From positions 224,001-288,000 of the forward strand of contig CAXXNF010000002.1 of assembly GCA_963666365.2 (NCBI GenBank): a DNA stretch of 64,000 nucleotides. The letters are read 5' to 3'. A program made the position numbers. Source of the DNA: Syntrophales bacterium (lineage in GTDB: Bacteria; Desulfobacterota; Syntrophia; Syntrophales; UBA2210). Shown here piece by piece: positions 30,001 to 33,000 of the stretch (the first letter of the stretch is position 1; every line of letters begins with the position of its first letter).

Positions 30001-33000
30001 CCGGGAAACGAGCGAATTATTGACGATATAATGAAAAAAGCAGATATTTCGGTAGAGGTGAAACTGGCGATGGGCGGTGCGTTCTTTCGAGTGTTTGCCT
30101 CGGATTTGTCTCACGAATATGTGGATATTAACGCACTTTATCACACATAATGAAGTAAAAGGAGCAACGGACGCCGGACAACGGCTTCATGGGACAGAAG
30201 GAAAACATAAGGGTATGAGTAACGGATGGCATCAGATATACACCAGCCGTCTCAGTACGGCACGGAAGGCGTTGGGGCGTATCAAAAAAGGCGGTAGAGT
30301 GCTGATCGGTTCAGCCTGTGGCGAACCGCAGCTTCTGGTGAAGACGCTCATTGACATAGCCCCCGATATTGCCGACACAGAAATTATTCATTTTCTTGAT
30401 TTCGGCCTGGCTTCATATACGGAAGAACGATACACGGATCAGTTTCGTCACAATGCGCTCTTTATGGGAGAGCGGATACGGGAGGTGATTCGGGAAGGAA
30501 GGGCTGACTATACCCCCATATTCCTGTCGGAAATTCCGCAGTTGATCCTTTCCGGTAGAATGCATCTCGATGTGGCCCTGATTCAGGTATCGCCCCCCGA
30601 CGATCACGGATATGTAAGCTTGGGCATTTCCGTGGACATTACCAAGACCGCTGCTGAAGCGGCCGATTACGTGGTTGCGGAAGTGAATCCCCATATGCCG
30701 AGAACCCTGGGCGATACATTTCTTCACGTTAGCGACATTCATGCCTTCGTCGAGAGTACGGAGCCGCTTCTCGAATTTCAATCCCGGTCGCCCAGTGACA
30801 TTGCGCAGAAGATCGGTGAGCATATCGCCGGTATCATAGAAAACGAATCAACGATTCAGACGGGAGTGGGCCGTATTCCGAACTCAATATTTCCCTACTT
30901 GAAGGATAAAAAAAACCTTGGTTTGCATACGGAAACCTTTACTGACGGCGTTATTGATCTCATTGAAAGCGGCGTTGTGACGTGCCGCAAAAAGACACTT
31001 CACCCGAACAAAATAATCGCCAGTTTTTGCATGGGTTCAAAAGAATTATATGAGTATGTAAACGACAATCCCCTTTTTGAGTTCCACCCCTCCCATTATG
31101 TGAACAATCCCCATATTATTGCACGGAACGAAAAGATGGTATCCATAAACGCGGCCTTAACCGTCGATCTTACCGGGCAGGTCAGCTCAGATTCGCTGGG
31201 GTTCCGTTTTTACAGCGGCATCGGCGGGCAGGTTGATTTTGTCCGGGGCGCCGCCATGTCGAAACGGGGGAGGTCGATTATTACGCTTCCCTCCGCCACC
31301 GACGACGGGGAAAAATCACGCATTGTGCCCTTCCTGAGCGAGGGGAGCGGGGTGGTTGTGACGCGCGGTGATGTCCACTATGTGGTCACGGAATATGGAG
31401 TGGCCTACATTCACGGAAAGTCCATACGGGATCGGGCGTTGGCACTGATTAACATTGCCCATCCGAAATTTCGGGAGGAGTTGCTTGAATCAGCGAAGGC
31501 GCAGGGATATGTATATCGTGATCAGGTGCTGCCGGTCGCGGTATATCCCAAGGAATTGGAAACCTATTTTACCGACAAGAAAGGGACGGAGATATTTTTC
31601 AGGCCTGTAAAGCCTACCGATGAACGGGGTATTCAAGAAATGATCTACTCACTTCCCGAACAGGACGTCTATACCCGATTTTTTCATAATCTCAAATCCT
31701 TTTCACATAGAATTGCCATGCCCCTTGCCGCAATCGATTACCAGGACGAAATGGCAATTGCCGGGGTTATCGGGCGGGAGGAACCGGAAAGCAAGGAAGA
31801 AATAATTGCCGTGGGACGGTACATTAGAGATCCCATGACAAATGTTGCAGAAGTGGCCTTTACCGTGCGTGATAAGTGGCAGAACCGCGGAATCGGTACT
31901 TTTTTACTGCAGTACCTGATAAGGATTGCCAAAGAGAAGAATGTGGAAGGATTGACTGCCGATGTACTGGCGAGAAACGATGCTATGATGGCGGTGTTTC
32001 ACAATGCGGGAGAACCCCTTCAGAGCCACAGAGAATACGGCGCCTTCGAGCTTAAATTCGATTTCCGTTCGCCTTCATCAGGAACACTATGATGGAGAGA
32101 AGGGCAGCGGGGTGCGCCCTTCAGGGGGGGCGGTCCTGTCACAATGCGCTCAGGTCATTGCCTATTTACGGTACGCTCAACTTCATGATGCTTCATGGGG
32201 CGCCCTCCCTTTCTAAGACAATGGTTCCTGTGTGCCGCAGCTGCCTGACGTTTCCTGTGTTGTTGATTTTTCTGTCTTCTCTGGTGCTCCGGTAAACCAG
32301 AAAAAGATAATGGCGATCACGATGGCAGCAATAGAAATTCCAAACGAAACATGATAGCTCGCCGTTAAGTCGAATATCTTGCCGCTCAACCATACCCCTG
32401 CTGCACCTCCAATGCCTCCTCCCAGCGAAAGGATCCCCATTATCTTTCCAAAATTGGGTCCCAGAAAGAGGTCGGCCGATCGGGCGGGGAAAAGGGGCGC
32501 AATCGATCCGTACCCCAAACCGAACAGTATCGCATAGCCGAAAAGGAGCCATCCTGTTGAGGGGGTGAGTATCATCAGACTCACCACGCCCAGGGCGGCG
32601 CATCCCATTCCCATAGTAAAGGCCTTCTCCCTTCCGATAATATCCGAAAGATAGCCGAAAAGGATCTTTCCCACCGATCCTATAATGCCGGCAAGTCCGA
32701 AGAAAAAGGCGCCTTGAACCGGCGTGAATCCCCTGTCGATTACGCTGGCCACTTGATGGATCAATGTCCCCTGTACCGCCAGGGGGGTAAAAATAAATGT
32801 TGCGCAGAGAAGCCAGAACTGCTTTGTGCGCAGGGTCTCAAGAATCGTCGCGGCAATCGGTGTATGCAGAATGATCGCCTCCCTTTCCCCTGTCTCTGTC
32901 TCGGAGTTCCTGTTTCCTCCTGAATGCGGTGTCAATCCATCGGGAATTTCACCGATTGCTGAGGGATTTTTCCGCTGCAGCAGGGCGTTAAGGGGGAAAA

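Follow-up and report, generated by a model that had tools for sequence, protein, structure and literature searches.

The locus examined here raises the question of what a CoA-transferase and a GNAT acetyltransferase do when they are joined in one polypeptide. The window, a 64,000-nucleotide stretch of a Syntrophales genome, encodes P0001, a 625-aa CoA-transferase::GNAT fusion (30215..32092, + strand, stop codon included) recognized by its open frame, its Pfam domains and its AF2 model. Judging from sequence, we put a probability of about 0.6 on P0001 being a Pat-like protein N-epsilon-lysine acyltransferase at the acyl-CoA/acetate/ATP node. The family to which it belongs is very widespread and unstudied, and in some of its members the transferase half is dead.

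The two halves of P0001

The genome-wide survey's note had described a fusion of this kind with three paralogs in the genome, and its open frame and its Pfam domains with their numbers were reproduced. We place the start of P0001 at the ATG at 30215 and not at the GTG at 30077 because homologues align from residue 3-5 onward. As read from the sequence, a Shine-Dalgarno-like AAGGG (30209..30213, + strand) lies upstream, with one base between its end and the ATG. The antisense of the frame contains many stops, and a promoter and terminator scan of 28600-33900 returned counts at the level of shuffled sequence. The chain matches PF02550 at residues 22-179 (1e-30) and PF13336 at 274-427 (6.4e-67), followed by PF13302 at 461-599 and PF00583 at 526-596. 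The whole chain was modeled by AF2 with a pLDDT of 91.5 and a pTM of 0.88, the latter predicting that the two domains pack against each other in a rigid, defined manner.

Both paralogues lack internal stops and have the domain set that had been claimed for them. Paralogue 2 (G000:C2:317018-318874, contig coordinates) is 91% identical to P0001 over query residues 1-619, and paralogue 3 (C2:1274766-1276601, contig coordinates) is 35% identical over residues 14-624, with PF13336 E-values of 2.4e-67 and 4.9e-38, respectively. The genome also holds the classical Pat-like protein reported earlier, as an 898-aa frame. Its 4.0 Mb contain no more than five ATP-grasp_5 loci, and four HDAC-type loci are situated away from the fusion genes.

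Residues 1-435 (30215..31519, + strand) form a Family I CoA-transferase module of the 4-hydroxybutyrate/butyryl-CoA:acetate type, as indicated by PF02550 and PF13336, phmmer and Foldseek. The best solved relatives by phmmer are Thermus TtCoAT (9vag, E 8.6e-138 to 4.1e-138) and the C. aminobutyricum enzyme (3gk7, 1.2e-117). In Foldseek comparisons the module superimposes on 3gk7, 2oas and RipA (3qli) with TM scores of 0.93-0.95, and the alignments to 3gk7, 2oas, 3eh7 and RipA, a list that does not include 9vag, show 38-43% identity. Pfam and Foldseek thus agree on the two-lobed alpha/beta fold of the acetyl-CoA hydrolase/transferase family. The score against TIGR03948 (butyryl-CoA:acetate CoA-transferase) is 296.6 bits, below the equivalog cut-off of 674.8, and membership of P0001 in that substrate group is therefore putative.

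The motifs of the active site are in place. G217-V218-G219 (30863..30871, + strand) is the candidate gating loop, situated 22 residues upstream of the catalytic Glu as in RipA, where a G-V-G loop precedes Glu249 by the same distance according to the passages on this loop in PMC3180442. The predicted nucleophile is E240 (codon 30932..30934, + strand) in the motif H-T-E; it aligns with Glu 238 of 3gk7 and shares its spacing from the G-V-G loop with Glu249 of RipA. The glycine loop S-G-I-G-G-Q-V-D-F (aa 334-342; 31214..31240, + strand) is conserved in clades A and B of the family, introduced below, and in the solved relatives. We presume that this loop has its usual role in the CoA-transferase; what residue 238 does in 3gk7 and how a Glu-to-Asp exchange would act are likewise assumed, with a general statement in the RipA paper as support. 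Literature searches on Glu238 of AbfT and on a RipA E249D mutant found nothing. Given the retained H-T-E240, G-V-G and SGIGGQVDF motifs, the transferase module of P0001 is probably still catalytic.

The C-terminal part has its own affinities. A linker and Pat-type N-terminal extension (aa 428-455; 31496..31579, + strand), modeled with pLDDT 86-92, includes a Y-P motif and aligns with residues 705-725 of PatZ and 20-40 of S. lividans PatA. It leads into a Pat-type GNAT acyltransferase domain (aa 456-616; 31580..32062, + strand) identified by PF00583/PF13302, NF058543, PDB matches and Foldseek. Among solved structures, residues 436-625 come closest to PatZ (9it0, 6e-20), S. lividans PatA (4nxy, 2.8e-14) and M. 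tuberculosis Pat (4ava, 3.5e-11), with M. smegmatis Pat also among the best, and the alignment to this group spans the Pat-specific Y-P...R-P segment that precedes the GNAT core. By Foldseek the domain lies on 4u5y_A, a Pat GNAT solved together with its Acs substrate domain, with a TM score of 0.93 and an rmsd of 1.7. The best NCBIfam match of the GNAT is NF058543, the mycobacterial Pat (1.1e-22), at 80.4 bits against an equivalog cut-off of 460.

The general base of the GNAT is predicted to be E546 (codon 31850..31852, + strand), which falls on the alignment position of E235 in M. tuberculosis Pat (4ava); the equivalent E234 of M. smegmatis Pat is called a putative catalytic base in the passages of PMC8556138 dealing with it. 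Across 96 aligned sequences this column is acidic in 93 (E 56, D 37, other 3). Q556-N-R-G-I-G561 (31880..31897, + strand) corresponds to the acyl-CoA pyrophosphate-binding loop of motif A, given as R/Q-x-x-G-x-G/A in the same part of PMC8556138, and over the 96 sequences Q is found in 86, G559 in 95, and G or A at position 561 in 93. Together, the sequence and model comparisons support placing the GNAT of P0001 in the Pat subfamily of protein lysine acetyltransferases.

A search with residues 436-625 alone gave 770 matches among 1269 candidates at E<=1e-3. The survey's note had counted 1323 of 1660 with slightly different region limits (440-625), and its totals were not reproduced; its description of the matches did hold, as 120/120 of those listed carry PF13336 and PF00583 and most are 612-642 aa long. 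The proposal that these proteins are a new type of protein lysine acyltransferase holds in part. The Pat affinity of the GNAT speaks for it, as does the architecture, which lies beyond the five described bacterial GNAT types since no CoA-transferase type is listed in the relevant passages of PMC8556138. Its assumption of a full CoA-transferase domain in all three paralogs and its restriction to syntrophs do not stand, as described below. The 2025 PatZ survey recognizes six seed types, none with a CoA-transferase architecture, and no paper on the fusion was found in a literature search that left subscription journals mostly uncovered.

Clades, triple fusions and gene neighbors

An order-level set of 57 loci divides into clade A (8 genes), clade B (18) and clade C (31), the last of which holds paralogue 3. 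The glutamate equivalent to E240 is present in 8/8 genes of clade A and 15/18 of clade B and in 0/31 of clade C. The gating loop of clade A reads TGVGR in 7/8 genes and TGIGR in 1/8. Clade C, represented in 26/31 related genomes, has lost the nucleophile and both glycine loops in 31/31 genes and kept the GNAT loop. Accordingly, only two of the three paralogs are intact: P0001 and its 91% twin retain E240 and both glycine loops, and paralogue 3 has H-S-L in place of H-T-E. The dead module of clade C is nevertheless about as conserved as the GNAT (mean pairwise identity 63.4% vs 65.4%), and an AF2 model retains the fold with a pLDDT of 86.4. From these alignments the clade C transferase appears to be a pseudoenzyme comparable to the Pat body and probably has a sensing role.

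A further 160 proteins (E<=1e-10) of about 1000 aa are triple fusions of CoA-transferase, GNAT and an HDAC-type deacetylase. Motifs were counted in the 111 of these with a length of 950 aa or more. All 111 contain G-x-H-H, which we read as the His-His dyad, and 107/111 contain D-x-H, read as zinc ligands; in the transferase part, 100/111 have H-T-D and have lost both glycine loops. The SGIGGQVDF loop is thus degenerate in clade C and the triple fusions alike. The sensor role that the note had suggested for the CoA-transferase module gains support from these two groups, in which the catalytic residues are gone and the module is conserved.

In a CoA-transferase tree all sampled fusions form one clade, with 20/20 stand-alone homologues from the same genomes outside it, showing a single origin of the fusion. 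A tree of the GNAT part (136 rows, 178 columns) recovers clade C and the triple fusions each as monophyletic, at a resolution too poor to show if the fusion GNATs enclose the Pat-like forms and the stand-alone GNATs of ~185 aa. Frames of 773-1109 aa from the phylum scan had been considered as extended fusions; six of these and the 893-aa frame at L067 have no extra Pfam domains and represent stop-to-stop read-through upstream of ordinary fusions.

The family extends well beyond syntrophic acid degraders, of which it had been proposed to be a specialty. In the phylum of the window 254/401 sampled genomes match the GNAT part, and the fusion is found under 23 phylum labels in bacteria and archaea, including methanogens and Asgard archaea, a taxonomic spread that errors in MAG binning may inflate.

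Many of the fusion genes lie near a gene for an ADP-forming acyl-CoA synthetase (ACD). An ACD gene is encoded within 5 kb in 13/26 clade A and B loci of the order, a count inflated by kinship as are the other order-level counts, and in 40/80 named cross-phylum loci, being absent within that distance in the other 40. In most cases the two genes adjoin in the same orientation, separated by 0-260 nt. In clade C, ACD is absent within 5 kb in 29/31 loci. An HDAC gene is located within 5 kb in 9/80 cross-phylum loci and 1/57 loci of the order. RlmL-type methyltransferase genes are upstream of clade C in 14/31 loci, all in one order, so that shared descent of the gene order could account for the link as well as function could.

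Among the copies in the genome studied, ACD-DRTGG neighbors are kept only by the 91% twin, and no HDAC-type deacetylase is found within 5 kb of P0001 or its two paralogues. A complex prediction for the 712-aa ACD neighbor of paralogue 2 and the GNAT domain (191 aa) reached a best score of 0.08 against a mark of 0.32, without controls, and speaks neither for nor against an interaction. The gene 68 nt upstream of P0001 is argJ; this link occurs in 1/57 loci of the order and was discarded as a functional clue. Among the sequencing runs listed for 28800-34700, none was of RNA.

Weighing possible functions

In the reading we favor, a Family I CoA-transferase stands where Pat/PatZ has an inactive regulatory body resembling an ADP-forming acyl-CoA synthetase. 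In clade A the module, probably still catalytic, would exchange CoA between short-chain acids and acetyl-CoA. The state of the module (acyl-CoA or CoA bound, possibly as the covalent glutamyl-CoA intermediate) would be read by the packed C-terminal GNAT, which would then acylate lysine residues in enzymes at the acyl-CoA/acetate/ATP node. The favored targets would be ACD, with which the fusion gene would ancestrally have shared an operon, or, as with Pat, AMP-forming acyl-CoA synthetases. Deacylases of the HDAC type or sirtuins would take the acyl groups off again. In the subfamily of paralogue 3 the transferase would act without catalysis, as a ligand-binding or scaffold module only.

The GNAT is taken as the working end because clade C loses the transferase residues but keeps the GNAT loop. 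Reversible N-acylation is suggested because the GNAT is fused to an HDAC-type deacetylase or encoded beside one (160 fusions, 9/80 loci), and a role at the metabolic node because ACD is within 5 kb in 13/26 and 40/80 loci. Several observations count against a Pat-like protein acyltransferase. The NCBIfam scores of both halves of P0001 are far under the curated cut-offs, P0001 itself has no adjoining ACD or deacetylase gene, ACD is missing within 5 kb in half of the named loci and in nearly all of clade C, and the GNAT fold and motifs do not reveal whether the acceptor is a protein or a small molecule. Polyamines and other small amines, too, are deacetylated by enzymes of the HDAC family. In addition, the genome could do without another writer of the Pat type, as it already has the classical Pat-like 898-aa frame.

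The breadth of GNAT acceptors bears on another explanation, in which the GNAT would acylate an amino acid, a polyamine or another amine, rather than a protein, with an acyl-CoA that the transferase makes from free acid and acetyl-CoA. GNAT folds serve many small-molecule acceptors, and the HDAC-family partners could be amidohydrolases of the acetyl-polyamine type. P0001 follows argJ, an amino-acid acetyltransferase gene, and the position of an intact transferase ahead of a domain that consumes acyl-CoA speaks for a hand-over of substrate. However, hand-over is inapplicable where the transferase is dead (clade C 31/31; triple fusions 100/111), argJ is next to the fusion in only one of the 57 order loci, no recurrent biosynthetic neighbors appear in the order-level set or the 80 named loci, and by both sequence and fold every nearest relative of the GNAT is a protein acetyltransferase from the Pat group. 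Acylation of a small molecule is thus unlikely.

The same loss of transferase residues weighs on the idea that P0001 is a self-regulating CoA-transferase of short-chain acid metabolism, with the GNAT acylating its own module in cis or within an oligomer to tune activity or partner binding. Clades A and B do keep the transferase catalytic residues, and a precedent is provided by TtCoAT, the closest solved homologue, which according to the portion of bioRxiv 10.1101/2025.10.31.685773 devoted to it is acetylated by a separate GNAT, TT_C1711, mainly at Lys5 and also at Lys6, modulating inhibition by a partner protein. The Lys6 column is Lys in 56/88 family sequences; yet the Lys5 column is Lys in 11/88, and in line with Lys5 and Lys6 P0001 has S11 and R12, neither of which can be acylated. 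Clade C and the triple fusions, moreover, keep the GNAT with apparently no transferase activity left to regulate, and we consider self-regulation improbable. That the GNAT is instead a non-catalytic acetyl-CoA-binding appendage, regulating the CoA-transferase or helping it to oligomerize, would fit the predicted rigid packing of the two domains (pTM 0.88) and the frequent regulatory use of degenerate enzyme domains. Against it are the acidic general-base residue in 93/96 sequences, G559 in 95/96, and the fact that it was the transferase residues and not those of the GNAT that clade C lost, making an inert appendage very improbable.

A bolder version of the Pat-like acyltransferase reading is unlikely when its parts are taken jointly. 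Under this scenario, the family would be an ancient lysine acyltransferase class spanning bacteria and archaea, in which the transferase is a covalent sensor or a generator of the acyl donor, forming glutamyl-CoA, or acyl-CoA from free acid and acetyl-CoA, beside the GNAT site. Whichever acid is available (butyryl, crotonyl, 4-hydroxybutyryl, perhaps benzoyl or cyclohexanecarboxyl) would be written on lysines of ACD and other acyl-CoA enzymes. The repeated decay of the transferase to a sensor and the alternative fusion of GNAT with ACD, as in Pat, would be two outcomes of an ancestral ACD/CoA-transferase/GNAT operon. If so, syntrophs and many other anaerobes would have enzymatic control of their acylomes.

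Regulated lysine acylation in prokaryotes is attributed to a handful of writers of five architectural types, to which the P0001 family would add a CoA-transferase regulatory body. The linkage to ACD points to an unrecognized control of substrate-level ATP formation from acyl-CoA; we know of no post-translational control of ADP-forming acyl-CoA synthetase, though no literature search addressed that point. For Syntrophus-like organisms, the family offers concrete candidate writers, three in the genome studied, for an acyl-lysine proteome attributed mainly to non-enzymatic chemistry; in the sections consulted of the Syntrophus acylome paper KATs appear in general terms only, with no mention of GNAT and no candidate named. 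New here are the split between active and dead transferases, the triple fusion with HDAC, the placement of the fusions in one clade, their occurrence under 23 phylum labels, and the ACD linkage. The three natural states of the family (active transferase, dead transferase, and dead transferase with a built-in eraser) provide a ready-made experiment on the conversion of an enzyme into a sensor.

Relation to known systems

The stand-alone enzymes closest to the P0001 module, 4-hydroxybutyrate CoA-transferase AbfT (3gk7), TtCoAT (9vag), Yersinia RipA (3qli) and the butyryl-CoA:acetate CoA-transferases, are ~440 aa long and share its fold and catalytic motifs. In Thermus, a close transferase homologue is tied to GNAT acetylation and metal-dependent deacetylation through TtCoAT, TT_C1711 and TT_C0104, as described in the corresponding passages of 10.1101/2025.10.31.685773. 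These are three separate proteins, however, with the transferase as the substrate, and P0001 lacks the lysine that is chiefly acetylated there. The AcuA-AcuB-AcuC system of Bacillus subtilis likewise places a GNAT writer and an HDAC-type eraser by an acyl-CoA enzyme, in control of AcsA, and in the P0001 family an eraser may be fused or adjacent. Unlike the fusions, AcuA is a stand-alone GNAT without a CoA-transferase module, and the neighboring enzyme in the P0001 family is usually ADP-forming and not AMP-forming. At the P0001 locus itself there is no HDAC gene and thus no pair of the AcuA/AcuC kind.

Type III GNATs, such as M. tuberculosis and M. smegmatis Pat (cNMP-binding module and GNAT; 4ava/4orf), ACT-GNAT and NADP-GNAT, have the same domain order as P0001, a ligand module followed by a Pat-type GNAT. 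Their modules are ~300-400 aa and bind cAMP, an amino acid or NADP+ according to the type III passages of PMC8556138, where the 430-aa enzyme fold of P0001 is not listed. The P0001 module, unlike these, would bind CoA esters and may turn them over.

A parallel in design is Pat/PatZ (YfiQ) of Salmonella enterica and E. coli (9it0, 9isq), which belongs to the same GNAT subfamily (6e-20 over PatZ 705-873, including the Y-P...R-P lead-in) and, like the P0001 family, has a large N-terminal body of ~430-700 aa for acyl-CoA handling. According to the type I passages of PMC8556138, the Pat/PatZ body is homologous to an enzyme but without catalytic activity, and in this it resembles clade C. In contrast, the body of P0001 is a Family I CoA-transferase that has its catalytic residues and no ATP-grasp domain, and beside many family members there is a real ACD, unfused. 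As P0001 combines PF02550 and PF13336 and has none of the Pat body domains, it is not a type I member, yet it may work like one.

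Domain composition and locus of P0001

The gene for P0001, a 625-aa CoA-transferase::GNAT fusion protein, is an open frame of 625 codons on the forward strand (window 30215-32092); the reverse strand of the same interval has stops throughout. The motif AAGGG, read from the sequence, lies just 5' of the ATG on the forward strand. Since homologue alignments begin at residue 3-5, the ATG at 30215 is favoured over an in-frame GTG at 30077. Pfam places AcetylCoA_hydro at aa 22-179 (1e-30), AcetylCoA_hyd_C at aa 274-427 (6.4e-67) and GNAT models at aa 461-599, the same three domains that the genome-wide survey's note had described. 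The 4.0-Mb, two-contig genome encodes two more full-length copies on the window's contig, C2: paralogue 2 (C2:317018-318874, 91% identity to P0001) and paralogue 3 (C2:1274766-1276601, 35%), for both of which the note's Pfam figures were reproduced. It also encodes stand-alone CoA-transferases of ~440 aa and an 898-aa Pat-like frame with ATP-grasp_5 and GNAT domains.

By sequence, residues 1-435 belong to the 4-hydroxybutyrate / butyryl-CoA:acetate group of Family I CoA-transferases, matching Thermus TtCoAT (9vag, E 4.1e-138) and Clostridium aminobutyricum 3gk7 (E 1.2e-117), and the AF2 model of P0001 superposes on 3gk7, 2oas and RipA with TM 0.93-0.95. E240 aligns with Glu238 of 3gk7, which we take to be the AbfT nucleophile. 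According to passages of PMC3180442, catalysis by Family I enzymes depends on a glutamate from which a glutamyl-CoA thioester is formed, and RipA has it at Glu249, 22 residues downstream of a G-V-G gating loop; the spacing from G217-V218-G219 to E240 in P0001 is identical.

The nearest relatives of residues 436-625, judged by sequence, are Pat-group protein acetyltransferases: Escherichia coli PatZ (9it0, 6e-20, PatZ residues 705-873), Streptomyces lividans PatA (4nxy, 2.8e-14), Mycobacterium tuberculosis Pat (4ava, 3.5e-11) and Mycobacterium smegmatis Pat (4orf, 6e-10). The top NCBIfam GNAT model is likewise mycobacterial Pat (1.1e-22, under its cut-off). E546, the predicted general base, aligns with E235 of 4ava, and Q556-N-R-G-I-G561 matches the R/Q-x-x-G-x-G/A loop. 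Over 174 columns, Foldseek matched the GNAT domain with TM 0.93 and rmsd 1.7 to 4u5y_A, a Pat GNAT solved together with the C-terminal domain of Acs; it found no solved chain spanning both halves of P0001. In the whole-chain AF2 model (pLDDT 91.5, pTM 0.88; linker pLDDT 86-92) these confidence values suggest that the two domains are packed in a fixed manner.

The P0001 gene begins 68 nt after argJ, which lies within 5 kb of a fusion at this locus only among 57 in the order. Downstream of it, on the opposite strand, come an MFS lactate/oxalate-formate-type transporter gene and a radical-SAM gene, in that order. At the DNA level, paralogue 2 resembles this locus only over window 30186-32065 (85.6%, 1880 nt), and the orthologous locus of a sister species (L020) has genes for an ADP-forming acyl-CoA synthetase (ACD) and a DRTGG protein upstream, and MFS and radical-SAM genes downstream. 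As L020 carries both flanks and the likeness of the paralogues ends at the gene, the ancestral unit was ACD-DRTGG-fusion, of which a gene-sized duplication here left one copy per flank. Six kb downstream of P0001, past genes for an SDR dehydrogenase and an enoyl-CoA hydratase, is a 509-aa protein (window 38205-39734, +) with CoA_binding_2 and Succ_CoA_lig domains and no ATP-grasp domain; its top NCBIfam model is acetate--CoA ligase alpha subunit, under cut-off, and it may be a split or alpha-only ACD. A 649-aa protein with carboxyltransferase (HMGL-like / PYC_OADA) and biotinyl domains (window 23239-25188, +) is encoded further upstream, ahead of genes for an M23 peptidase, SecA and ArgJ; it resembles pyruvate carboxylase subunit B / oxaloacetate decarboxylase alpha under equivalog cut-offs.

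Loss of the transferase site and origin of the fusion

Full-length fusions, 57 genes in total, are encoded in 29 of the 31 genomes surveyed (own, genus, family and order); of the other two, G022 gave no match and G028 a stand-alone transferase only. By identity to P0001 the 57 genes form clade A (at least 65%, 8 genes), clade B (41-50%, 18 genes) and clade C (at most 38%, 31 genes). An alignment of 96 sequences combined P0001 and the 57 genes with 38 representatives (560-700 aa) taken from an exhaustive search; one representative, P0123, turned out to be Pat-like. The CoA-transferase nucleophile is Glu in just 44 of the 96, while the flanking His is retained in 90 and the Thr/Ser in 92. All eight clade A proteins have H-T-E and SGIGGQVDF, and their G-[VI]-G loop reads TGVGR in seven proteins and TGIGR in one. 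Clade B usually has a G-Y-G gating loop and keeps the Glu in 15/18, with Asp in L043 and L046 and Gln in L045. In clade C the Glu is present in 0/31, replaced by L, F, I, P, Y, T or V (the triplet of paralogue 3 is H-S-L), the first gating-loop Gly is gone and the glycine loop is degenerate. The GNAT CoA loop is retained in all clades (Q in 86/96, G559 in 95/96), and the general-base column holds E in 56, D in 37 and other residues in 3, Asp being usual in clade C according to the motif table.

Mean pairwise identity in clade C is 63.4% for the dead transferase module versus 65.4% for the GNAT domain, and 163 of the module's 430 columns are at least 90% conserved. An AF2 prediction retains the fold (pLDDT 86.4, pTM 0.82, secondary-structure order unchanged), with confidence dropping only near the degenerate glycine loop. 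Since its transferase motifs are lost, its two parts are equally well conserved and it occurs in 26 of the 31 genomes, clade C appears to be a conserved pseudo-CoA-transferase::GNAT.

For the phylogeny, 93 transferase domains of fusions and 20 stand-alone CoA-transferases encoded in the same genomes were compared over 427 columns (IQ-TREE in quick mode, LG+G4), and we rooted the tree on the most distant stand-alone group. A branch with SH-aLRT 99 separates all fusions from all stand-alone transferases. Clade C groups with the representatives P0200 and P0256 (support 100) on a long stem (0.54) nested among intact-site fusions, and a further branch of 0.35 leads to the 31 clade C genes (support 99). 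This quick-search, author-rooted topology fits a single fusion event and then catalytic loss. The Glu is also missing here and there in clade B and among the representatives, which suggests that decay occurred more than once. In Asgard members the nucleophile position is occupied by His (H-S-H) or Asp (H-S-D) (L167, L173 and L177 from Promethearchaeota / Hermodarchaeota; L176 from Ca. Lokiarchaeum ossiferum), and the GNAT loop reads R-x-K-G-[IL]-[GT]; these residues may mark an additional independent departure from catalysis.

Distribution, related architectures and gene neighbours

Matches to P0001 residues 430-625 (E<=1e-15) occur in 254 of 401 sampled genomes of the window's phylum and 168 of 255 genera; 133 of the 150 matches listed sit in stop-to-stop frames of 597-735 aa. 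A search with a junction-spanning alignment, one genome per species, gave at least 604 stretches, at least 596 of them confirmed. The best 80 loci, 77 full fusions and 3 cut by contig ends, carry 23 phylum labels, individual ones of which may be binning errors as the records are mostly MAGs. They include Planctomycetota, Chloroflexota, Verrucomicrobiota, Nitrospirota, Thermotogota and Myxococcota, the archaea Methanosaeta, Methanolliviera, Bathyarchaeia and Thermoplasmatota, and the Asgard Hod-, Hermod- and Promethearchaeota, with the complete genome of Ca. Lokiarchaeum ossiferum. At the nucleophile position 71 of the loci have Glu, 3 have Asp (Lokiarchaeum included) and 3 have His (all Asgard), dead forms being under-sampled in a list ranked by clade A likeness. 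In the window's phylum, the locus L101 (G330:C37:11000-18500) has three head-to-tail fusion genes (frames of 680, 637 and 616 aa), and tandem pairs occur in two other genomes (G302:C6 and G084:C41).

Exhaustive HMMER with the GNAT part matched 10,531 representatives at E<=1e-3, 2,587 at 1e-10 and 32 at 1e-30. The best 150 of the 10,531 comprise 43 full fusions, 51 fragments retaining some transferase and 56 that align in the GNAT alone, mostly proteins of ~170-200 aa beginning at the fusion's GNAT start. Pfam, run on 14 selected matches, assigned P0123, the second-best match (46% identity), as Pat-type I-like and P0239 as a type II form. P0133 and P0137 (~960 aa) have a ~340-aa N-terminal region with 4Fe-4S dicluster motifs ahead of the CoA-transferase::GNAT, a hint that this variant may respond to redox state.

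P0225 (1013 aa) combines CoA-transferase, GNAT and Hist_deacetylase domains. A search with its residues 440-1013 yielded 160 proteins with E<=1e-10 from 6971 candidates. PF13336 and PF00850 are present in each of the 120 listed and PF00583 in 107 of them; Deltaproteobacteria, Myxococcota, Planctomycetes, Aminicenantes and Thermoplasmatota are among the source labels. Of the 111 proteins of at least 950 aa, 100 have H-T-D as their transferase triplet and 7 have H-T-E; in this set both transferase glycine loops are gone and the GNAT loop is retained. G-x-H-H occurs in 111/111, D-x-H in 107/111 and a G-G-Y-type motif in 96/111, the first two presumably the His-His dyad and zinc ligands of the deacetylase. 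With transferase motifs lost, and GNAT loop and deacetylase patterns kept, one chain unites a sensor-like module, a predicted writer and a predicted eraser.

Neighbours within the order were sought by tblastn (coverage at least 0.5, within 5 kb). In this set, where counts are inflated by kinship, an ACD is found near 3/8 clade A, 10/18 clade B and 2/31 clade C genes, a stand-alone Pta-N-terminal-like protein (AAA_26 + DRTGG) near 3/8, 7/18 and 0/31, and a histone-deacetylase-type (HDAC) gene near 1/57. Six clade B loci have fusion-ACD-DRTGG on one strand, with a fusion-to-ACD gap of 12-201 nt. Recurrence across phyla is the stronger evidence: an ACD lies within 5 kb in 40 of the 80 named loci, mostly adjacent on the same strand (gaps 0-260 nt), with DRTGG in 10 and HDAC in 9 of these best 80; two Sedimentisphaerales loci have the order ACD-fusion-HDAC. 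As the own 4.0-Mb genome has five ATP-grasp_5 loci, we estimate chance ACD adjacency at about one per cent. An S-H-T-G motif is near-invariant in the ACD neighbours, presumably the phosphohistidine loop of active enzymes.

The AAA_26 + DRTGG protein (~347 aa, L018:7801-8844, G000:C2:315800-316843; homologues in L020, L024, L026, L037-L039, L042 and L044) accompanies ACD and fusion in 10/26 clade A and B loci and 10/80 named loci. We take it to correspond to the N-terminal regulatory part of E. coli-type phosphotransacetylase, and it could be a regulatory subunit of the ACD or of the fusion. In 14/31 clade C loci (L019:7433-8629 and 13 others), but in no clade A or B locus, the dead-transferase gene is preceded at 45-741 nt by a same-strand gene for an RlmL-type (THUMP + UPF0020) RNA methyltransferase, an arrangement that may reflect either function or inherited synteny. 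In G030, a cytidylate-kinase-like gene (Cytidylate_kin2, L025:8445-9140) stands between ACD and fusion.

A putative Pat-like acyltransferase

We favour P0001 as a putative Pat-like protein lysine acyltransferase because of its Pat-affine GNAT, the GNAT outliving the transferase, the fused or adjacent HDAC and the ACD linkage. The CoA-transferase body would report CoA esters to the GNAT, clades A and B perhaps processing them too, and the targets would be enzymes of the acyl-CoA/acetate/ATP node. A rival is that the GNAT acylates its own transferase body, since TtCoAT, a close homologue of that body, is itself a lysine acetyltransferase (KAT) substrate in Thermus, according to passages of bioRxiv 10.1101/2025.10.31.685773; however, the main Thermus acetylation site aligns with Ser11 of P0001. 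The GNAT may instead, less probably, use a small-molecule acceptor.

Literature searches aimed at a CoA-transferase::GNAT architecture found no paper. In the abstract and passages of a 2025 PatZ paper, the survey is seeded with six known types only and "CoA transferase" is absent. Passages of the Syntrophus acylome paper lack the word GNAT, name no candidate writer and describe regulation of the modifications as not understood. The five GNAT types in passages of a 2021 review have no CoA-transferase body (PMC8556138). The same passages describe the synthetase-like body of types I and II as catalytically inactive yet able to bind acetyl-CoA, and clade C resembles these in that both bodies are catalytically dead enzyme homologues.
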